A stretch of 17,919 nucleotides of DNA, taken from positions 64,001 to 81,919 of IMG/VR virus record IMGVR_UViG_2667528037_000002, one strand, 5' to 3'. Source of the DNA: a virus. Lineage: Duplodnaviria > Heunggongvirae > Uroviricota > Caudoviricetes. The position numbers and the translations under genes are program-made. The notes under the pieces were generated by a model. That model was given only the letters and a program-made list of their open reading frames with translations, made no database searches and was not told where the DNA came from. The stretch's first letter is position 1. The number at the start of each line of letters is the position of its first letter. Positions 2,722 to 12,263 of this stretch are shown here, one piece after another.

Positions 2722-3099
2722 ATGAAGGACACCTCACTGTTGGGCATCAAGACGTGGAGTGACCTCCGCGCCTTCATACACACCGCAATACCCGGGCTGG
2801 CCGTCTTCCTGGTCACCATGGGGATTCTGACGGCCACTAAAGCGAATCTGGTTGCGGCACTGCTGCTTGCGGTGTTCGACTCGACCCTGTCGCACATCAA
2901 CACCGCCGATGGCTTCCGGCGCTGGGTGTACCCCGTCCTCGGCACCGGTGCCACCCTCCTCATCGGGTGGGGCATCTTCACTCAGGACCAGATCGCGCCA
3001 TGGCTTGCGCTCATCCCAATTCTGTTGGGGGGCGGGCTCGCAGCGGCCAACACCAACACCACGCCCAGCATCGTTCCGACGAGCGGCTCGGCTGAGTGA
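2722..3099 (+). CDS. Holin (four predicted TM segments)
   Basis: 125 aa with four hydrophobic stretches, RBS-like GAAAGGGA upstream, directly after lysin B. Confidence 0.8.
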   Translation: MKDTSLLGIKTWSDLRAFIHTAIPGLAVFLVTMGILTATKANLVAALLLAVFDSTLSHINTADGFRRWVYPVLGTGATLLIGWGIFTQDQIAPWLALIPILLGGGLAAANTNTTPSIVPTSGSAE

Positions 3100-3506
3100 G
3101 CGGGGGAGTGGGCGCTGACTCCTGGATGGACCTAGCCGCCCTGACCATCGCGGCCGTCGGCGGCTGGGGCACCGCGTACATCACCTCGCACTTCTCCAGC
3201 CGCAAGCACGTAACCGCCGTCAACAAAAGCGTCGACGCGGTCGAGGCGAAGTTGGCAGGAGTGGAGGAGCAGGTAGTGAACTCACACGAGACCAACCTGC
3301 GCGACGACGTGGACCGCGCAGTCCGCGGCGTCGAGTATCTGGTCGACAGATTCGCCGATGCCATGCGCGACCTGCGCGGTATCCGCGAGGAGATGTCCGA
3401 CCTGCGCAAGGAAGTTGGCGGCCTGCACGGCGACGTTCGCGAGCAGAACCGCAGACACACCGCCCTGTACGACCGGGTGACTGATCTGGAGGACCGCCGC
3501 CCCTAG
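3096..3506 (+). CDS. Lysis-cassette membrane protein with coiled coil (DUF2746-like)
   Basis: N-terminal TM helix, NSHETNLRDDVD motif typical of the gene after actinophage holins, heptad-rich C-terminus, GTGA overlap with the holin stop. Confidence 0.75.
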   Translation: MSGGVGADSWMDLAALTIAAVGGWGTAYITSHFSSRKHVTAVNKSVDAVEAKLAGVEEQVVNSHETNLRDDVDRAVRGVEYLVDRFADAMRDLRGIREEMSDLRKEVGGLHGDVREQNRRHTALYDRVTDLEDRRP

Positions 3507-3526
3507 ACCCACGCGATAGCTGGAGG

Positions 3527-3555
3527 ACGCCCCGGCCTTCGGGCCGGGGCGTTTT
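3527..3555 (+). terminator. Intrinsic terminator ending the lysis operon
   Basis: 11-bp perfect stem ACGCCCCGGCC/GGCCGGGGCGT, TTCG loop, followed by a T run. Confidence 0.85.
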
Positions 3556-3569
3556 CCCGTACCAGCCGG

Positions 3570-3600
3570 TTGCCTCCACGCATGTATAGCGCGGTATACT
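3570..3600 (+). promoter_or_regulatory. SigA-type promoter (likely leaderless) with operator copy 1
   Basis: TTGCCT (3570-3575)-N19-TATACT (3595-3600), with ATG 6 nt downstream. Palindrome GTATAGCGCGGTATAC (3584-3599) overlaps the -10. Confidence 0.7.
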
Positions 3601-3606
3601 GCGCGC

Positions 3607-3828
3607 ATGGATACCCCGTCGGATGAGCAGGAGGCGGCCCGGGCTTCTGTCCGTCGGCTAGCCCGCCGCCGCCGACGCCAGGCTGTGTTGCGCAAGCAGA
3701 CCGACACCGAGTTCTACGAGGCCGTCAAACAGGCCAAGGCGTTGGGTGTCGGCGCCACCGTGCTGGCACGTGATGCCGAGGTAAAGCGCGACAGTATCTA
3801 CAAAATCGTGGACGGCTCTATCTCCTGA
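3607..3828 (+). CDS. Small helix-turn-helix DNA-binding protein (73 aa), candidate autorepressor
   Basis: C-terminal HTH-like segment GVGATVLARDAEVKRDSIYKIV after a long basic helix; operator in its own promoter. Confidence 0.75.
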   Translation: MDTPSDEQEAARASVRRLARRRRRQAVLRKQTDTEFYEAVKQAKALGVGATVLARDAEVKRDSIYKIVDGSIS

Positions 3829-3835
3829 GCGAGCG

Positions 3836-4483
3836 TTAGCCCGCGACGTACCAGTCGTCTCCGATTGCCGTACGCAGGAACGCCATGTGCACGTGAATCT
3901 GGAACAAGTGCGTACTCTCCACAACCGCAGCACCGCCAATTCGTAGACCCGGCGCGAACCCGTACACCTCGTCGAACTGCAACGGCCCCAGGTGCTCATA
4001 CACGCGATCGAACATGGGTTCCTCATCGCGGCCGCGGAAGTCGAACTGGTCTTTCCTTGCAGCCGTGAAGAAAGCCTGCATTGCACGTTCAAGGCTATGT
4101 GGTGACGAGTCTTTCGGGGGTGCCCAGAAAAACGCCGATCCTCGGGCGGGCTCAACGGTTATCGACATCCCGTACCCCGGGGTCCAGAAGAACGTCTTCC
4201 CGAAAGCGCTACGTAGGAACGGGATATACAACGCGTTTTCGTCTAGGCGAGGGTGTCGGAGGGTGTCGAGGAGGACCTCGTCGGCGGTGACCTTCCACTC
4301 GATCGGATCAACAAGCCAGGCGATTCCGTTGCCAACGCCGGAGAATCCGTACTCCTGCCAATACGAAATAAGGCAATCGGGAACCAGCCCGGCGTAGTCG
4401 CGCACGTGTTCATCGGTGCACGCAGGCCCGCTGGTTGAGAGAGGGAACTTCGTTAGGAAGTACTCAAAGTATTCGTCGGCCAC
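3836..4483 (-). CDS. Immunity protein, GAD-like + DUF1851 (Tdi1-like)
   Basis: GAD-like N-terminus (VPDCLISYWQEYGFSG..WLVDP) and DUF1851-like C-terminus (MFDRVYEHLGPLQFDEVYGFAPGLRIGG); starts 3 nt after the toxin stop. Confidence 0.88.
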   Translation of the reverse strand: MADEYFEYFLTKFPLSTSGPACTDEHVRDYAGLVPDCLISYWQEYGFSGVGNGIAWLVDPIEWKVTADEVLLDTLRHPRLDENALYIPFLRSAFGKTFFWTPGYGMSITVEPARGSAFFWAPPKDSSPHSLERAMQAFFTAARKDQFDFRGRDEEPMFDRVYEHLGPLQFDEVYGFAPGLRIGGAAVVESTHLFQIHVHMAFLRTAIGDDWYVAG

Positions 4484-4486
4484 AAA

Positions 4487-6685
4487 TCACCTTTTGCCAA
4501 ATCTGGTGTTTACTATCGCGTTCGGATCTTGGGTTTCAAGCCATGCTCTGAAGGCGTCTCTCTCCTGTTTCGTCAAGTTACCAAGCGCGTTGTTGACTTG
4601 CCAGTCACCATAAGTCAGGCCGTCGCGGTACCCGCCGAACTTGATATCTGGGTTATGGATCACGGGCTGCGGAATTAGTCCGGGGCCTTCGGGGAATTGC
4701 TCAGACGCATAGTTGTTCGCGAGTCTGTCAGCCTCCATCGGACTGTAACCGGCATCGATCAGGTCTTGCGTTCCACGCACTCCAAGCTCTGTGCGCAAGT
4801 CACTTCGTAGGTCAGAGGAGGGCGGTCGAGTGGCCTCCATATTGTCGAGGACTTGTTGGACGCTTTGGGTGTTGAGGCCGTGTTCCCACAGCTGTGTATG
4901 TCGGTCGATCTCAGCCGAGTGGTCGCCAGCGTGCTTGTCGGTGTACGCCGGGTGGTCAACGTCGTACACCGGGGTGCGCGGTAGATCGTCGACGTGCACG
5001 CCCCGGTGAGTTGCTATGTCCTGGAGGTTCTGTTCGCCTCTGTCCCAGTCGAGTTGGTCGCGTTCGAAGCGGTGTGCGGCGCGCGAGTCGTTGAGGATGT
5101 CGTCCGCTGAGCGGGGGAGTCCGGCAGCGTGCTCGATGTTGGAGGGAATGCCGTGATTTCCACCGCCATTGTGATCGGCTGCGGGTGCTGGGTGGTCTGC
5201 CACTGGTGCGGGATGGGTTGGGCCGCTAGGCGGTTCGGTGGGCGCGTGTCCTGTGACTGGTGTGTGGGGTTCGGCGCTATGCGGGGTAGGTGGGTGCCCT
5301 GGCGCAGCGTCTTCGAGTCCGTGGGTGAGGGCGCGGCCTTCGGTGCCGAGCAATGCGCCTTCACCGCCGACGGGTGCTGTCGCGATGCCTGCGGCGATTT
5401 CTATGCCGTGTTTTCCGATGAAGGCTTTGGGGTTGTCTATGCCGGATTTGACCTCATCGATAGCGCCCTTAGCCTGGTCGATGCCACGTTCAACCTGGTG
5501 GACGGGATCGGGGTTGACCACATCCCACAGCCCTTTAGCGACGCCCTTCCACGCCTCTTTCGCGTGGTCGCCACCGTTGATACCCAGCAGGTCATCCTTG
5601 GCGCGGCCAGCTTGATCCCACGACTCGGCGAAAGCCTCGCCACCGGATTGCCGAACACGTTCGGGCGTACCGGGTTCGGGTGTTGCGACCATGGGCCGGT
5701 CCTGCTGGGCGCCCTTGATCGCATCGGACAGCTTGGCCTCCACCTGATCAGGCGGATACTGCGTGGCCAAGATGCTGCGGAACTTGTCGATGGCCGCTTT
5801 CCCCTGCGGGGTGTTGGGGTCCAACTTGGGTGCGGGTACCGTGCGCGCGTCCGGTGGAGCGGGAGGTTTGTCGAGCGGGCTTTTGGGCTCGGTAATACCC
5901 ATCACGCCCAGTTTGTCGGTGAGGCCACCTGCGCGTGGATCGGGCTGGAAGGGCTTGTCGCCGGGTGAGGGCGGCCCAAGCACTGGTGCGTGTGGATCGG
6001 TGGCGGTAGCGGCTGCGGCCTGCGTGCTGGCCGGGTCGGTGGCCTTGGGGTACCAGTCCTTGTAGAAGTTGGCGTCCTGAGCCGACGAGTCGCCCGGCTT
6101 CGGGGTGGCGGCGTCGCGCAGGATCTTGCGGCCATCGACCAGGGCGGTTTTGGGGTTGATGCAGCCGGTGATCTTCTGGGCGATGGCGTCAGCCTGGGCC
6201 TTGAGGGTTTGACAGCCCTTATCCCACTGAGCGACATACCCTTTGACTTGGCGCTCAATGTCGGCGACATGTTCGCGGTTCTTTGCTATCGACTCATCGC
6301 TCTCACCCTCAGCGGGGTGGTAGGCCATGTTGTAGCTCTGATCGATTGAAACGCCCTGGTCCTTGTGTGCCAGCACGCTCTCGATGAGACGTTGGCCATT
6401 GACCAGTGGCTCGACGACTTCGTATTGGATGGTGGCGGCCACGAGTTTTCCGCCGTCTTCGGCGGCGTCGTCGGTGTTATCCGAGCCGTGGCAATCGGTG
6501 GATGCCGTGTCATAGGCCGCGTTCGAGGTGCGCCCGGTCCACTCGGTGCCATTAGGAGCCCCGACCCACCGTTTGTACTCGTCGTAGGTCTCTTTGAACT
6601 GCCGGGTTTGTGGACGCCAGGTGTCCACCACCGCCATATAGTCGTTGGCCTTCTTGGCCATGAACTCATCCAGTGGCGTCACCAC
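4487..6685 (-). CDS. ESX (type VII)-secreted polymorphic toxin with N-terminal WxG domain and C-terminal Ntox15 (Tde1-like) nuclease
   Basis: EWTG motif near the N-terminus, Pro/His-rich linkers, C-terminal HGLNTQSVQQVLDN...IHNPDIKFGG...GDWQVNNALG matching the Ntox15 HxxD pattern; cognate Tdi-type immunity gene downstream. Confidence 0.88.
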   Translation of the reverse strand: MVTPLDEFMAKKANDYMAVVDTWRPQTRQFKETYDEYKRWVGAPNGTEWTGRTSNAAYDTASTDCHGSDNTDDAAEDGGKLVAATIQYEVVEPLVNGQRLIESVLAHKDQGVSIDQSYNMAYHPAEGESDESIAKNREHVADIERQVKGYVAQWDKGCQTLKAQADAIAQKITGCINPKTALVDGRKILRDAATPKPGDSSAQDANFYKDWYPKATDPASTQAAAATATDPHAPVLGPPSPGDKPFQPDPRAGGLTDKLGVMGITEPKSPLDKPPAPPDARTVPAPKLDPNTPQGKAAIDKFRSILATQYPPDQVEAKLSDAIKGAQQDRPMVATPEPGTPERVRQSGGEAFAESWDQAGRAKDDLLGINGGDHAKEAWKGVAKGLWDVVNPDPVHQVERGIDQAKGAIDEVKSGIDNPKAFIGKHGIEIAAGIATAPVGGEGALLGTEGRALTHGLEDAAPGHPPTPHSAEPHTPVTGHAPTEPPSGPTHPAPVADHPAPAADHNGGGNHGIPSNIEHAAGLPRSADDILNDSRAAHRFERDQLDWDRGEQNLQDIATHRGVHVDDLPRTPVYDVDHPAYTDKHAGDHSAEIDRHTQLWEHGLNTQSVQQVLDNMEATRPPSSDLRSDLRTELGVRGTQDLIDAGYSPMEADRLANNYASEQFPEGPGLIPQPVIHNPDIKFGGYRDGLTYGDWQVNNALGNLTKQERDAFRAWLETQDPNAIVNTRFGKR

Positions 6686-6693
6686 GAGTGTCC

Positions 6694-7014
6694 CTATGCC
6701 CGCTTCGGTGGCTGATAGATGCTGGGCAGATTGCCGTACCCGGCCGCCAATGAACTCTCCGTGATCGCGAAAGCCTGCTGGGCCTCGTCGGCGAAATCAG
6801 CGATGGTGTTCAACCGCGCGGCCCCGATCCGCTTCACATCCGCGATGGCTTTCGACACCCCATACAGCGCCGCCAACCCCGGATCAGCACCAGCAGGGGC
6901 CGCAACACTGGCCGCCGTGCTCTGTGTGAGCTGATCAGCGAGCGTCCGCAGGTGCGGGCCGAGCTTGCCCAACGCCGCAAGGTCAAACTTGAGAACGTTC
7001 TCGTCGCCCGACAT
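6694..7014 (-). CDS. Small WXG100/EspC-like ESX secretion partner (106 aa from ATG 7014; GTG 7020 is an alternative start)
   Basis: About 100 aa, helical and Ala-rich, with a PAGADP turn and FxxxE (FAITE) near the C-terminus; first gene of the toxin operon. Confidence 0.78.
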   Translation of the reverse strand: MSGDENVLKFDLAALGKLGPHLRTLADQLTQSTAASVAAPAGADPGLAALYGVSKAIADVKRIGAARLNTIADFADEAQQAFAITESSLAAGYGNLPSIYQPPKRA

Positions 7015-7173
7015 CAACACCCCCGGCGCAATTAATTAGAACCGGCCTCTGGTCCGGCTGATTGGCTACTGGGAGCGTAGTAGTAGGAATTGGCTGGCGT
7101 CCAGCCAAACGAGGATATTCCCGCAGTAAGTGGGGCGTTGCTGCAACAAATCTGACTGGGTGATGGGGTTGCG

Positions 7174-7626
7174 CTAACAACCGGCAGCCGCGGCTAGATC
7201 CTGTTCACGTTGTGTTCGGTTGGCGGGCGCGGTGTCGCATGCTCGGTCTACATCCCGGCCGCCCTGGTTGTTGTTGGACTGGGCCTGGTTGACCCGTTCC
7301 AGGCGAGTGGGGCACACGTAACGCATGCCGCGCCGGACGATGGTCATGGTGCCGTCGGTGTCGGCGGCGATCATTGACTCGAACTCGTTGACGGTTTTGT
7401 CGCAATTCTTGACCGTCAGTTCGTACATGCGTGCCATGTCCGGTGATGCATCCGGGCTGGAGGCAAGTATCTCGGCTCTCCAGCCGCTCATGTCGACCGA
7501 CGTCTGGGGCAGTATCGCCGGTTTCTGCGCCGCGGACGTAGTTGGCGGCGCCTCCTGCACCGGTGCCCCGCCGCACCCCACGGTCATGGCCGCAAACACC
7601 GTGTACAGCCCCCACCTAATTCTCAT
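7174..7626 (-). CDS. Putative lipoprotein
   Basis: Basic N-terminus, hydrophobic core, lipobox-like TVG-C, Pro/Thr/Ala linker and paired Cys. A -10-like TAGAGT (7638-7633) 6 nt before the ATG suggests a leaderless mRNA. Confidence 0.72.
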   Translation of the reverse strand: MRIRWGLYTVFAAMTVGCGGAPVQEAPPTTSAAQKPAILPQTSVDMSGWRAEILASSPDASPDMARMYELTVKNCDKTVNEFESMIAADTDGTMTIVRRGMRYVCPTRLERVNQAQSNNNQGGRDVDRACDTAPANRTQREQDLAAAAGC

Positions 7627-7681
7627 GGCCGAACTCTAAACCGGGGTAGCCGCGATAGGGGGCGTTGACGACCAACCCCTC

Positions 7682-7710
7682 TCGACACAACGTATAGCGC
7701 GCTATACGTT
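7682..7710 (+). promoter_or_regulatory. SigA-type promoter with operator copy 2 (perfect 22-bp palindrome)
   Basis: TCGACA (7682-7687)-N17-TACGTT (7705-7710); AACGTATAGCGCGCTATACGTT at 7689-7710. Confidence 0.8.
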
Positions 7711-7749
7711 CAAGTGGAATTTCCAGCGAACACCAGGGAAGGTCTCACC

Positions 7750-8067
7750 ATGTCAATTGCAAGCACTGCAATCACGCTGACCGCGGACGAGTTGGATGCG
7801 GTCAGCCGCTCCATGCTTGTCCACGAACCGCACCCGGACGTACGTCCGGCCTTCGACTGGGTAGGTCGGGGTCACCGGCCGCCGTGTCTCGCCTATCGCG
7901 GTGACCGGGTCGTCGAGTTCGGATACGAGGTCGCGGTGGTGGTGGCGGCCCGGCGGGGAGGTGACGACGTCTACGCGATCCGCAGCGCCATCGAATCCCT
8001 CGGGCCTTGTCATCGGCAGGGTCGTATCCACTTCTGGCCCGGTGTGATTCCGGCGGTTGCCGCCTGA
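7750..8067 (+). CDS. Hypothetical protein (105 aa)
   Basis: ATG 7750 preceded by AGGGAAGG (the track's GTG 7714 lies too close to the -10); has its own promoter and terminator. Confidence 0.7.
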   Translation: MSIASTAITLTADELDAVSRSMLVHEPHPDVRPAFDWVGRGHRPPCLAYRGDRVVEFGYEVAVVVAARRGGDDVYAIRSAIESLGPCHRQGRIHFWPGVIPAVAA

Positions 8068-8084
8068 CTCTTCCTGGTTACTTC

Positions 8085-8122
8085 TCACCCCCGCCCCATG
8101 TGGGCGGGGGTGATTTCTTTTT
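8085..8122 (+). terminator. Intrinsic terminator
   Basis: 12-bp stem TCACCCCCGCCC/GGGCGGGGGTGA followed by TTTCTTTTT. Confidence 0.85.
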
Positions 8123-8136
8123 CTTCTTGCTCATGC

Positions 8137-8166
8137 TTGCCTAAAACGTATAGTGCGCTATACATT
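8137..8166 (+). promoter_or_regulatory. SigA-type promoter with operator copy 3
   Basis: TTGCCT (8137-8142)-N18-TACATT (8161-8166); AACGTATAGTGCGCTATACATT at 8145-8166, two mismatches to copy 2. Confidence 0.8.
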
Positions 8167-8205
8167 CGAGCCATCGGTTAAGCAAACATCAACCAGGAGG
8201 AAACC

Positions 8206-9390
8206 ATGACCGCACCAACACTCCCCGCAGTACCCGCCCGCACCCTGCGCAACGCCAACATCGGAAACCTCATAACGCTGCTGGAGCAGCAGCACCGGCA
8301 GAAGGTGGACGTCGTCATGCCCGTCTCCGACGTCCGGTTCACCAGCGGCAACCTGGTCATCTCGGACCAGGCGCCCGACATCAACGACGAAGGCGTCACC
8401 GACTTCAACGGGACATACCGGATGACCGACCGCTCCGACAGCCAGCTCGGCGACGTCCTCGACATCCCCACCCGCTATGTCCGGAAGCTGCGCGCGCAGC
8501 ACCTGGAACTGATGGACACCAACGTCAACGAACTGGCCCGGGTGCACGACCCCGCCAAGAAGGTTCTCGTCCGCATGCTGTCGGGCAGCGACCCCATGTA
8601 CCCCGGCACCCACGGCATCGTCCGCGCCGTGCTGTCAGACCGGTACGGCATCCGCGACAACCTCGACACCGTGCTCGCACTGCTCGATGGGATGCGCGCG
8701 GCCGGTCTCGGCGCCCAGCACATCCGCGGCGCCGACTTGTCCGACGAGAGGCTGTACCTGCGGGTGACCGCACCGGAGCTGGAGGTCGTTGCCCCCAAGC
8801 TGCTGGAGGGCTACCGCTCACCCTGGGCAGGCACAGCACACGGCGGCGAAGCCGCCAACACCCTGCCCGTCGTCTACGCCGGAATGCTGGTCACCAACAG
8901 CGAGACCGGCGGCGGCGCACTCACCATCACCCCAGAGCTGCGTATCAGGATCTGCGACAACGGCCTCACCATCAACGCCGATGCCATGCGCAAGATCCAC
9001 CTCGGCAAGAAGCTGGACGACGGCAAGGTGAACTGGTCGGCAGACACCATCGACGCCGCCAACGACCTGATCAAGAAGCAGGTCCGCGACGCCGTCGCGT
9101 CCTTCATGAACGTCGACTACGTGAAGACCGCTATTGAGAAGCTGGAGGAGACCAGCGGCACCCCGCTCACCGCCCCGGCCGACGTGATCGAGGTCGTGGC
9201 CAAGAAGCTGTCCTACAGCCAGGACGAACAGCGCGGAATCCTGGACCACTTCATCAAGGGTGGCCAGATGACCGCGGGCGGCGTCATGCAGGCCGTCACG
9301 TCGTACGCCCAGCTGATTGCCGACGTCGACCGCTCCAACGAATTCGCGGCCACCGGTGTGGACGCCATGCTCGTGGCCGCCGGTCGCTGA
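8206..9390 (+). CDS. DUF932-family protein
   Basis: AGGAGG RBS at 8195-8200; motifs RAVLSDRY..DN and VTNSETGGGAL....RIRICDNGL resemble the DUF932 NSxxG / CxNGL signature. Confidence 0.78.
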   Translation: MTAPTLPAVPARTLRNANIGNLITLLEQQHRQKVDVVMPVSDVRFTSGNLVISDQAPDINDEGVTDFNGTYRMTDRSDSQLGDVLDIPTRYVRKLRAQHLELMDTNVNELARVHDPAKKVLVRMLSGSDPMYPGTHGIVRAVLSDRYGIRDNLDTVLALLDGMRAAGLGAQHIRGADLSDERLYLRVTAPELEVVAPKLLEGYRSPWAGTAHGGEAANTLPVVYAGMLVTNSETGGGALTITPELRIRICDNGLTINADAMRKIHLGKKLDDGKVNWSADTIDAANDLIKKQVRDAVASFMNVDYVKTAIEKLEETSGTPLTAPADVIEVVAKKLSYSQDEQRGILDHFIKGGQMTAGGVMQAVTSYAQLIADVDRSNEFAATGVDAMLVAAGR

Positions 9391-9401
9391 CTGCCGTAGG
9401 G

Positions 9402-9439
9402 GAAGGAGGGCCACCCGAGGGGATGGGTGGCCCTCCTTC
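9402..9439. terminator. Strong hairpin between convergent genes (probable bidirectional terminator)
   Basis: 15-bp perfect stem GAAGGAGGGCCACCC/GGGTGGCCCTCCTTC with an 8-nt loop. Confidence 0.75.
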
Positions 9440-9735
9440 TATTCAGGGTCGACGACCCGGAGTCTCGGCGGCTCGGCTGCACCCTCCGGTGCAGCGTCGA
9501 GCGCTTCCCTGACGCATTTCGCGATGTGCTCCGCTAACCCGTGGATGACGTCCTCGGTGACGTACGCTTTCGCCGCGCGCCGCTGAATCCGCATGCGCTC
9601 GGCAACGAAATCCACATGCGCGGAGACGTCCTCGCGGGCAGTGCTCTCGCTGATAGTCAGCCCGTATTGCTCGGCTAGCGTCTGGATGAGCAGGTTTGCT
9701 CGTGCGTTTAGCCACGGTGACTTGCGGGCAGGCAT
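9439..9735 (-). CDS. Hypothetical protein (98 aa from ATG 9735)
   Basis: Helical, protein-like composition (MPARKSPWLNARANLL...). The track's start at 9816 overlaps the integrase 3' end, so the internal ATG is preferred. Confidence 0.6.
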   Translation of the reverse strand: MPARKSPWLNARANLLIQTLAEQYGLTISESTAREDVSAHVDFVAERMRIQRRAAKAYVTEDVIHGLAEHIAKCVREALDAAPEGAAEPPRLRVVDPE

Positions 9736-9760
9736 GCGGCGTAACCCTACCGGCGCCTGC

Positions 9761-10765
9761 TTAACTTCCGGGGTATAACGGGGGCAATTGATCAGATAGT
9801 AATGCCGTCGATGCAATAACAGCGACGGCAGCGGCGCCGCCTGCGACCGCGCTGCCAGCCCACCTCGCCGCCTTCGCTAGAGGGGGCGGTCCAGAGGAGG
9901 CAGCCATCATGGCTGCCCGCTTTTCGTCGTCATCCACAGCGGTGTATAGCTGCGTAGTAGCAACCGATGAGTGGCCCAACAACTCCTGCACGGCGCGTAT
10001 GTCCCGTGTGCCCCGGTATGCACGTGTAGCGAAACGGTGGCGCAGCTTGTGCATCGTCCACACACCCGGCATCGCCTTTGCGCACAACTTGCCGACCCAT
10101 CGCGGGGACAGGTGCCCGTTGTCGTCGCCAGGGAATAGATACCCGCCCGACCCTAGGCCCGGGGTGTGACCACCTGGCCCGGCCGCGACCATGTCCGCGA
10201 GGTCATCGGAAATGGGTATGGTCCGCTCCTTGCCGCCCTTGCCATGAACGACCAGAAGGTATCCCCCGATGCCCTCCAGTAGGTCGTCTGTGTGCACGGC
10301 GGCGACTTCACCGCGTCGTAACCCGCCATCGCAGGCCAGGTACAGCATGACCATGGTGCGGGGGTCGGCCGCCAGAAGCGACTCTTTCCACACGCGATCT
10401 GGTGCCGGTTTAGGTGCCGGTGGCTCCGGCGAGACGGCCTCCAGCCCGGCGGCTGGGTTAGACAAAAGGTGTCCCTTGGCATGCGCCCAGCCGAAAAACC
10501 CCCGAGTTGTCGTCCGGTATCCGCGACGAGTTTCGCGTTGCCAGTGTTTTTGCTTAGCAAACCACTCGATGAGCGTTTCCTCGGTCACCTCATAGGGCGC
10601 CGCATCCAGTCCGCGGGCTAATCGGTGAAGGTGCGACATGCGTGTCGCGATGGTCGTCCGCGGGCTACCGTCCGCCTCCAAAGCGGTGCGGTACTTCGCG
10701 ATTATCCCCTGCCATTCTGGTGGCGCCGGTAGCGGCGCCGGTCCAGTCCCCCTTGAAGTTGTCAT
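9761..10765 (-). CDS. int: Prophage tyrosine integrase lacking an N-terminal arm-binding domain
   Basis: Catalytic set GLRRGE (R), VHGKGGK (K), HKLRH (HxxR), LLGH (H) and TTQLY (Y). The core-binding domain starts right after ATG 10765 (TTG 10834 is the track's longer start). Lies next to attR and points away from it. Confidence 0.88.
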   Translation of the reverse strand: MTTSRGTGPAPLPAPPEWQGIIAKYRTALEADGSPRTTIATRMSHLHRLARGLDAAPYEVTEETLIEWFAKQKHWQRETRRGYRTTTRGFFGWAHAKGHLLSNPAAGLEAVSPEPPAPKPAPDRVWKESLLAADPRTMVMLYLACDGGLRRGEVAAVHTDDLLEGIGGYLLVVHGKGGKERTIPISDDLADMVAAGPGGHTPGLGSGGYLFPGDDNGHLSPRWVGKLCAKAMPGVWTMHKLRHRFATRAYRGTRDIRAVQELLGHSSVATTQLYTAVDDDEKRAAMMAASSGPPPLAKAARWAGSAVAGGAAAVAVIASTALLSDQLPPLYPGS

Positions 10766-11099: not shown

Positions 11100-12263
11100 T
11101 TAGCCGCCACTTTCAGCGAACTGCTCCAAAGCCGCTCGGACATCGGGGCCTCGGGTCTGGCGCTCTAAGTAATGCGCCTCGGTGGTGGCCAACTTGGAAT
11201 GGGAGAGCTGCTGCTGCGCCTTATCAGGGCCGTGAGCATCACGGACAACGGTGGCGACCGTGCGTCTGAACGAGTGCGGCGTGACCCAGCTCAGTTCATC
11301 CGGCAGAGCTGCACGCAGAGCCCGACGCATGTTGGCTAGGGACATCCAGCCGCCCTGACGATTGGCGAACACTGGGCCTTCCATACCGGACTCTCCGACA
11401 AGCTCCGTGAGGGTCTCAACACCAAACTTGGGTAGAACAACGGTGTGCGGGGGAGCATGGTGCTTGCGGTGGTCCTGCCGGTGCAGTGGCTTACCCACGA
11501 TGCGCCCGTGGTCGATCAACGTCCCGGTAATCGTCAGGGTAGGTGGGTCCGCCAACAGGTCAACATCAGACCACCTCGTAGCTAGTACTTCGCTGGGTCG
11601 GCAACCTGTCGCCACCAACACGTCAATGAATGCGGCGAGAAGTCGGCCAGGACGCGGCCCGGAACCTTTCCGAGTCGAGTACGCCTGGACGGCAGCCCGG
11701 ATCTGCCGGAACTCAGCTGCTGTAGCCGCGCGAGCTGGCTTACGCGTCGTTTTGACCGGCTTCGCCTCGCGGATCGGGTTCACCGGTAGGACATCGAATC
11801 TAACGGCCATCGAGAACATTCCCGACAGCACCGTGCGCAGCCGCTTGGCCTGAGTCGTTGCCCCCATCCCCTGTAGATAGTTGTGCGCCGATTGGGTGCG
11901 TAACTCCGTGACCCTTAGGGAGCCCAACTGGGCGGCGCCATGGGTTTTCCATACCGCCCGATACTGGTCTACCGTCTGCTGTAGAACGCCGTCCTCGGCT
12001 GCCTTTGCTTCGATCCACAGATCGAACAAGTCAGTGAGGGCGGTTTTTTCTGTCACCAGTTGCCCGGAGAGCGGCGCGCGTCGGGCGTTCAAGTGCCGCT
12101 GGAGCGCGCGCCGCGCATCCTCGGCAGATTTCTCGCTGGACCGCTCTACTCGTCGCCGCTTGCCATCAGAGTCACGCACGTAGGTAGAAGCGAAAAACAT
12201 TCGACCACTTACCCGTTCGGTGATCTTGCCGTGCTCCCCCGGAGCGAGCCGCTGCCTAGGCAT
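11100..12263 (-). CDS. int: Tyrosine integrase of the second element (with N-terminal arm-binding-like domain)
   Basis: TGCRPSE (R), PHSFRR (HxxR), LSHS (H) and TEAHY (Y); N-terminal beta-rich segment; stop 67 nt from the tRNA fragment. Confidence 0.93.
   Translation of the reverse strand: MPRQRLAPGEHGKITERVSGRMFFASTYVRDSDGKRRRVERSSEKSAEDARRALQRHLNARRAPLSGQLVTEKTALTDLFDLWIEAKAAEDGVLQQTVDQYRAVWKTHGAAQLGSLRVTELRTQSAHNYLQGMGATTQAKRLRTVLSGMFSMAVRFDVLPVNPIREAKPVKTTRKPARAATAAEFRQIRAAVQAYSTRKGSGPRPGRLLAAFIDVLVATGCRPSEVLATRWSDVDLLADPPTLTITGTLIDHGRIVGKPLHRQDHRKHHAPPHTVVLPKFGVETLTELVGESGMEGPVFANRQGGWMSLANMRRALRAALPDELSWVTPHSFRRTVATVVRDAHGPDKAQQQLSHSKLATTEAHYLERQTRGPDVRAALEQFAESGG

Follow-up and report, generated by a model that had tools for sequence, protein, structure and literature searches.

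A probable palindromic operator at six accessory promoters of a Mycobacterium abscessus MabK prophage, with a small helix-turn-helix protein as its candidate binder

KorA of the IncP-1 plasmid RK2 is a small dimeric helix-turn-helix (HTH) repressor that has an operator of its own, and its OA palindromes of 12-16 base pairs (bp) lie over the -10 of several promoters. Aca1 and Aca2 are also small HTH repressors; their inverted repeat lies over a strong promoter, expression takes the form of a self-limited burst, and aca stands directly after acr in the same operon. In this study, we describe a palindrome that recurs in a window of 17,919 nucleotides (nt), which is the right end of an 81.9-kilobase (kb) provirus of Mycobacterium abscessus (IMG/VR record IMGVR_UViG_2667528037_000002; G000:C1:64001-81919), and whose leftmost copy in the window precedes a gene for an HTH protein of 73 amino acids (aa). 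By analogy, the prophage would share with KorA a self-controlled HTH protein and a palindrome that recurs in a mobile element at several separate promoters, each time over the -10, although KorA belongs to a plasmid, not a phage, and acts together with KorB. For the 73-aa protein, no significant sequence match to KorA was found; its neighbours in a protein atlas include clusters with PF16509 KORA, which is a lead only. With Aca the prophage shares an inverted repeat in the promoter of the regulator's own gene (3584-3599, overlapping TATACT), whereas the 73-aa gene is monocistronic, its product would act in trans on five other promoters, and no target is a known anti-defence gene.

Within mycobacteriophages, the closest described systems are the multi-site operators of immunity repressors, namely the 12-bp palindromes of BPs gp33 and the stoperators of Cluster A and MabJ (PMC9934374). 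These also consist of a site repeated over the genome with one copy over a promoter. However, they include the early lytic promoter, whereas all copies of the present motif lie in accessory-gene promoters and the immunity region has none. Positions 3000-10000 of the window are 92% identical to Mycobacterium phage prophiGD43A-5, and the provirus is related to prophiT37-1 as well. Both are members of cluster MabK, which has integration-dependent immunity at attB-1 (PMC8092301); the same paper names an RNA-seq dataset of the GD43A lysogen (GSE161710). Our comparison covered prophiGD43A-5, prophiT37-1, six complete IMG/VR proviruses and one 41%-complete fragment. No mention of the motif was found in PMC8092301, PMC9934374 or PMC7194413.

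We consider it highly probable that the palindrome is the operator of a regulon. Whether the 73-aa HTH protein is its binder could go either way. The explanation as a whole, in which the palindrome would be the operator of a cassette of about 45 bp placed at six accessory units and the 73-aa protein its most likely binder, is one that we would back about as readily as doubt.

The motif is GTATAG-N4-CTATAC (6 + 4 + 6 bp). A search of the window with GTATAGCGCGCTATAC, allowing one mismatch, found an exact copy at 7692-7707 and one-mismatch copies at 3584-3599 (GTATAGCGCGGTATAC) and 8148-8163 (GTATAGTGCGCTATAC). The shuffle expectation is 0.03 matches, and three copies were reached in 0 of 200 shuffles. 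The shared palindrome that a first-pass annotation of this DNA had placed at these three loci is therefore real, although its longer form, flanked by AAC and GTT, is complete at 7689-7710 only; the flanks read AAC...ATT at 8145-8166, and the copy at 3584 has no extension. When the whole provirus was searched with one mismatch permitted per half, six copies were found, and the reversed-sequence control gave none. The additional copies, all mid-genome, are S1 (provirus position 25557), which faces the leftward genes of a BrnT-like toxin/antitoxin pair; S2 (25605), which faces the gene of a 112-aa signal-peptide protein ahead of a transfer RNA (tRNA)-like/Ro (Y-RNA/Ro) region; and S3 (29064), which faces a chain of genes of unannotated function. 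The window copies, S4, S5 and S6, precede the 73-aa gene, a 105-aa gene and a 394-aa gene. The three-gene mini-regulon of the first-pass annotation has to be abandoned, because six promoters carry the site, including those of a toxin-antitoxin pair, a secreted protein and a multi-gene operon. An everted arrangement of the half-sites, CTATAC-CGCG-GTATAG, was also observed at G000:C1:26025-26040 (L197:4026-4041). The tRNA-like/Y-RNA array and the Ro gene lie behind this copy, which may serve as the promoter of that array or represent a seventh site.

The geometry is the same at all six sites: a TTGNNN or TCGACN sequence lies 4-8 nt ahead of the motif and TANNNT, the mycobacterial -10 form, overlaps its 3′ end. 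The half-site centres are 10 bp apart, and the dyad spans the spacer and the -10. On the forward strand, S4 (3570-3600) comprises the -35-like TTGCCT (3570-3575), the palindrome (3584-3599) and the -10 TATACT (3595-3600), with a spacer of 19 nt. S5 (7682-7710), also forward, comprises the -35-like TCGACA (7682-7687), the exact palindrome (7692-7707) and the -10 TACGTT (7705-7710), with a spacer of 17 nt, and S6 (8137-8166), again forward, comprises the -35-like TTGCCT (8137-8142), the palindrome (8148-8163) and the -10 TACATT (8161-8166), with a spacer of 18 nt. It is plausible that the three window palindromes overlap promoters, and the SigA-like -10 overlap of the first-pass annotation agrees with the conservation of the TANNNT and -35-like hexamers; promoter activity and transcription starts at these sites are what we infer from the letters. 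At four sites, the ATG lies 7-10 nt after the motif and a ribosome-binding site is absent, and we read the genes there as leaderless. The distance is 10 nt at S1, S2 and S3. At S4, the -10 ends 6 nt and the motif 7 nt ahead of the ATG of the 73-aa gene; because the -10 lies so close and no ribosome-binding site is present, the mRNA of this gene would be leaderless. Leaders of about 33 nt, containing GGAAGG and AGGAGG, respectively, precede the 105-aa and 394-aa genes.

The motif is better conserved than its surroundings across the relatives. All six copies are syntenic in prophiGD43A-5, prophiT37-1 and the six complete IMG/VR proviruses, and the fragment keeps its three mid-genome copies. The outer hexamers are virtually unchanged in the alignments; S2 and S4 depart by one base, and this departure is fixed for each site. 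The central four bases and the immediate flanks vary. The motif and TATACT of S4 are unchanged across nine variants; at S5, TCGAC, the outer hexamers and GTT are unchanged across eight variants while the flanks differ; and at S6, the block from AACGTATAG to CTATACATTC is unchanged across nine variants, including the relative L181, whose protein is 91% identical. Within IMG/VR, more than one exact copy of the motif occurs in these proviruses alone. The motif scan that the first-pass annotation had called for has thus yielded additional copies, six in all, and 73-aa homologues that are confined to motif-bearing prophages.

This co-occurrence was judged in three DNA collections (phages, IMG/VR and one metagenome contig). 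Among the genes directly behind a site, the 73-aa gene (3607-3828, forward strand) is the only one that encodes an HTH; its product is predicted to consist of a basic N-terminal helix and a C-terminal HTH and is the candidate cognate repressor. The syntenic prophage L181, which encodes the homologue P0005, has a 61%-identical form of the protein and keeps the three right-arm sites. A further homologue, P0007, is about 40% identical and stands outside the DNA-based comparison. Searches for distant relatives with flanking DNA returned nothing beyond MabK-type prophages, and the case of a retained motif with a lost HTH gene was seen in no relative examined.

According to the explanation that we favour, a promoter-operator cassette of about 45 bp has been set before six accessory transcription units of the MabK prophage. 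A dimer bound to half-sites one helical turn apart would cover the spacer and the -10 and exclude RNA polymerase. The 73-aa protein would limit its own level, because its own gene carries a copy of the operator. It would also set the level of the other five promoters, and would do so without the immunity repressor; the sign and timing of this regulation are likewise what we infer. The first-pass annotation had also made the HTH protein a repressor of itself and the other genes. The copy 7 nt before its ATG and the recurrence of the small-HTH pairing in Cluster Y phages speak for this proposal, and the binding step is a prediction.

The pairing of a small HTH gene with the cassette finds its best evidence in Cluster Y. 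The nearest outside relatives of the 394-aa protein (DUF932, see below), gp46 and gp11 belong to Cluster Y phages of Mycobacterium smegmatis, and Bipper, Cracklewink, Typha and Hilltopfarm carry the cassette. Cracklewink and Hilltopfarm are laid out like the right arm of MabK, with lysis genes, a terminator, a small leaderless HTH gene, accessory genes and an integrase; the accessory genes include a BrnT-like toxin and then a homologue of the DUF932 gene (55% identical) before the integrase. In front of almost all accessory genes there stand TTGCGG, a spacer and GTCTAG-N4-CTATAA/C; in this last element, 13 of the 16 bases are identical to S6. Each of these two phages has nine copies of GTCTAG-N4-CTA(G/T)A(C/A), with five or six of them behind the lysis genes and the other three or four behind the gp46 homologue, in parallel with the two zones of MabK. 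The first gene past the lysis terminator is the small leaderless HTH gene (Cracklewink gp39, 83 aa; Hilltopfarm gp37, 77 aa), and a perfect palindrome, GTCTAGAGAGCTAGAC, lies 8 nt ahead of the ATG of Cracklewink gp39. An hhalign comparison of gp39 with the 73-aa family gave a probability of 58%, an E of 1e-4 and 29% identity over the basic helix and the HTH. The putative recognition helix reads KRDSIYKI in MabK versus GKARAYQI or SKPRVYQI in Cluster Y, and the half-site, GTATAG in MabK versus GTCTAG in Cluster Y, changes together with these residues. The two cassettes therefore share the gene order, a 16-bp site of like form in the spacer and -10, and a second group of sites after the gp46 homologue. 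They differ in that the Cluster Y cassette has the GTCTAG half-site, is mostly half-palindromic, occurs in nine copies, is followed by a hairpin-like leader and accompanies an HTH that is 29% identical. This conserved leader, ACCGGGGCAGGTACCAGACCAGCCCCC, which is capable of forming a small hairpin, follows the cassette ahead of most Cluster Y accessory genes (L200:1829-6003, L201:9450-13816), and MabK does not have it. A description of the Cluster Y cassette was not found in the literature searched, and a locus search with a narrower HTH alignment returned the known Cluster Y and F phages only.

Several observations weigh against the 73-aa protein as the binder, or against a dedicated operator. 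The HTH assignment of this protein is built on weak scores: phrog_686 at E 2e-4, the Tn3/gamma-delta resolvase HTH at E 0.4-0.8 (best 0.38) and a protein atlas score of 0.93 to small actinobacterial and phage HTH clusters, with no Pfam family above threshold. All annotated DNA-binding genes are present in seven of seven proviruses (the provirus analysed here and six relatives); therefore, the 73-aa gene cannot be picked out by presence and absence. MabK and Cluster Y also have the gp46-like HTH in common (58% identity). In Cluster F, the GTCTAG-type palindrome is not above the control level despite small HTH proteins with a recognition helix close to that of Cluster Y; therefore, the covariation of helix and half-site holds for two lineages only and is not general. 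A generic sigma-70 scan called no promoter at S4, S5 or S6, which the first-pass annotation had taken for SigA-like promoters. The spacer of S4 is long (19 nt), and the -35 of this site is not conserved in L181. Finally, the Cluster Y copies are mostly half-palindromic with a -10-like right half; therefore, part of the conservation may reflect promoter function.

The last point bears on an explanation without any dedicated regulator, in which the motif would belong to a strong promoter cassette that has been copied and spread by recombination among accessory genes, and a -10-like sequence on each strand would account for its symmetry. At every site the right half and the -10 overlap, and the right half in Cluster Y is usually CTATAA, which does not mirror the left half; moreover, TACGTT can be read on either strand at S5, which lies between divergent genes, and S1-S3 also resemble one another in the sequence that follows the motif. 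However, SigA-type promoters require no particular sequence in the spacer, which is where the left half GTATAG lies; even so, this half does not vary at six sites and in all relatives while its neighbours drift. In addition, perfect dyads are kept at the HTH genes, and five of the six sites are flanked by a gene on one side only. We regard this explanation as unlikely.

A somewhat less unlikely explanation, although still one that we doubt, accepts a real operator and assigns it to another phage protein, such as the gp46-like HTH of the early operon, with the 73-aa protein merely regulated. The regulon would then be switched during lytic growth and would not be self-limited. In MabK, about 1.5 kb separate the gene for gp46 from the mid-genome sites downstream of it; in Cracklewink, the distance from the gene of its 58%-identical homologue to the distal sites downstream is about 1.6 kb. 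All candidate genes occur in every genome compared, and the Cluster F result weakens the link between the HTH and the operator. However, gp46 has no site at its own gene, its match to a YdaS-type HTH is only 0.037, and a 38%-identical homologue in Sparky comes without the motif; among the other candidates, gp36 is RepA-like and gp11 is WhiB-like.

Three other proteins were considered. The BrnA-type antitoxin was set aside; it is a 64-aa acidic product that shows no DNA-binding region. The 'TetR-like' protein linked to the integrase is an unlikely binder, as its homologues follow the integrase in four phage groups that have no motif copy. Its 97-aa gene (9443-9735, reverse strand) is a constant companion of the integrase in prophiGD36-2, phiGD57-1, prophiGD43A-3 and Purky, which have integration-dependent immunity, and it probably belongs to the integration module, not among the cargo regulators. 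The Ro-linked 76-aa HTH protein (weak HTH_31) is also unlikely, as homologues with a conserved HTH occur next to Ro in Sparky and BearBQ without a motif copy. Its gene (L197:6689-6919; provirus positions 28688-28918) directly follows the Ro-like gene, and the pair of Ro and HTH is conserved in the Mycobacterium phages Sparky and Farewell and the Gordonia phages BearBQ and Cashline, which suggests that the 76-aa protein is a dedicated partner of the Ro/Y-RNA module.

The immunity repressor was also considered as a binder: the phage has integration-dependent immunity, and BPs-type repressors own several palindromic operators. However, the interval from the repressor gene to gene 2 is free of the motif and carries TATGCG-type repeats instead, as does the repressor-excise region of Cracklewink; indeed, the first 24 kb of the provirus, including the early lytic promoter by the repressor gene, contain no copy. 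We consider binding by this repressor extremely unlikely. The control regions between the repressor gene and gene 2 of MabK (G000:C1:300-470) and Cracklewink (L200:8944-9170) have TATGCGAATATGCG-type repeats in common, which are likely an immunity operator conserved across both lineages.

It is also very unlikely, if slightly less so, that a transcription factor of the host M. abscessus binds the sites and links the accessory genes to a host signal. The promoters are of host type, and a related cassette occurs in phages of M. smegmatis, so that a conserved mycobacterial factor is conceivable. However, the half-site differs between MabK and Cluster Y, and the phage HTH differs likewise; moreover, a scan of species genomes for the motif gave scattered single matches in unrelated bacteria, among the matches listed.

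The first-pass annotation had compared the circuit with Aca: an HTH repressor would control the 105-aa and DUF932 genes as anti-defence genes that come on in a burst when the phage enters a naive cell and are silent in the lysogen. A self-repressed HTH protein on host-type promoters would indeed produce a burst early on, the genes are organised as promoter-gene-terminator units, and by its fold the DUF932 protein matches YubP of the F plasmid as well as YfjQ and YafZ of cryptic prophages. The Aca reading nevertheless fails on anatomy, because the HTH gene is monocistronic and shares an operon with no target; it has its own promoter, a terminator before it and a convergent immunity gene of a toxin cassette after it. 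Furthermore, the regulon also holds the toxin-antitoxin pair, the secreted protein and the multi-gene operon, and no target matches a family of known function. None has a demonstrated or predicted anti-defence function, and that part of the proposal was analogy only. The location between the lysis genes and the integrase is also the usual place of genes expressed in mycobacteriophage lysogens (PMC8092301). We therefore judge an Aca-like circuit to be quite unlikely.

The three forward genes downstream of the window sites are real, as the first-pass annotation had them. For the 105-aa gene (7750-8067, forward strand; leadered, with the GGAAGG ribosome-binding site), the variable sites among nine variants number 74 at codon position 3 and 28 and 23 at positions 1 and 2, and this concentration at position 3 is the reason for accepting the forward open reading frame as a gene. 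Its product has no family in Pfam, PHROGs, NCBIfam or the atlas. At the same locus, prophiGD43A-5 is annotated with a reverse-strand gene, gp114 (7753-8088), and prophiT37-1 with the forward frame, gp107; the former annotation is probably wrong and the latter right.

The 394-aa gene (8206-9390, forward strand) encodes a distant member of the DUF932 (UPF0380) family. The protein matches phrog_1362 at E 2e-97, and its full-length homologues P0075, P0081 and P0096 carry PF06067 (47-48% identity, E about 1e-100); UniRef names the homologues P0009 and P0050 DUF932. An alignment-based AlphaFold2 (AF2) model has a predicted local distance difference test (pLDDT) value of 87.9, and residues 144-393 of the model match E. 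coli YafZ and YfjQ and F-plasmid YubP with probability 1.0 and template modelling (TM) scores of 0.45-0.50 by hit. However, the protein itself gives no match to the PF06067 model in Pfam, even at E 10. Judged from its homologues and the predicted fold, the DUF932 label of the first-pass annotation is right as distant membership, although the protein's own Pfam match fails. Searches with Foldseek against the PDB and VIA-wide found no convincing solved relative (best Z 6.7), and neither the DUF932 papers nor the solved structures assign the family a function.

Terminator-like hairpins occur at the three places where the first-pass annotation had put them, and all three exceed their shuffled counterparts in stability by a wide margin. 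The first (3522-3557, forward strand; -37.2 kcal/mol, z -5.5, followed by a T run) ends the lysis operon just upstream of the HTH promoter, and in relatives its stem is conserved while its loop changes. The second, an intrinsic terminator after the 105-aa gene (8085-8113, forward strand), has a 12-bp stem and a T run (z -5.8). The third (9401-9440; 16-bp stem, -39.4 kcal/mol, z -4.3) is flanked by the DUF932 gene and, convergent with it, the gene of the integrase-linked HTH protein, and it is terminator-like in both directions.

The gene order in the window is lysin A, lysin B, holin, a 136-aa gene and the 73-aa gene. A leftward WXG/polymorphic-toxin/immunity cassette and a leftward 150-aa lipoprotein-like gene follow, and then the 105-aa gene, the 394-aa gene, the small 'TetR-like' HTH gene, the integrase and a second integrase-bearing element. 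This element is opened by a second tyrosine integrase (11100-12263, reverse strand, and beyond) and is stacked behind the prophage. The 150-aa gene (7174-7626, reverse strand) diverges from S5, which lies in its sole upstream intergenic region, and it is possibly, although uncertainly, controlled from there as well; no convincing leftward -35 was found. Its product has a lipoprotein-like signal (…TVGC), and TAGAGT lies 6 nt ahead of its ATG; this gene, too, may lack a leader and be served by a leftward promoter of its own next to S5.

Taken by itself, the circuit proposed here would be an ordinary kind of switch, so far undescribed for this phage group, and it introduces no new principle. What this analysis adds is the right-arm sites, a candidate regulator and the counterpart in Cluster Y. 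We think it improbable that it amounts to more, namely a second, immunity-independent timing circuit extending from Cluster Y to MabK, with a self-limiting accessory-gene burst on entry and with the DUF932 or 105-aa protein as a counter-defence factor; if true, a counter-defence role would be the first function for DUF932. The prophages of M. abscessus are studied for their effects on virulence, phage resistance and phage therapy. One site joins a toxin-antitoxin pair, a secreted protein, a region next to Ro/Y-RNA and a DUF932 gene, and it would offer a handle on when these genes are on. The related cassette of Cluster Y, whose phages grow on M. smegmatis, would allow the circuit to be tested in a host that is both safe and fast-growing. 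Moreover, the set of promoter, operator and repressor could serve as a compact regulated expression tool for mycobacteria.

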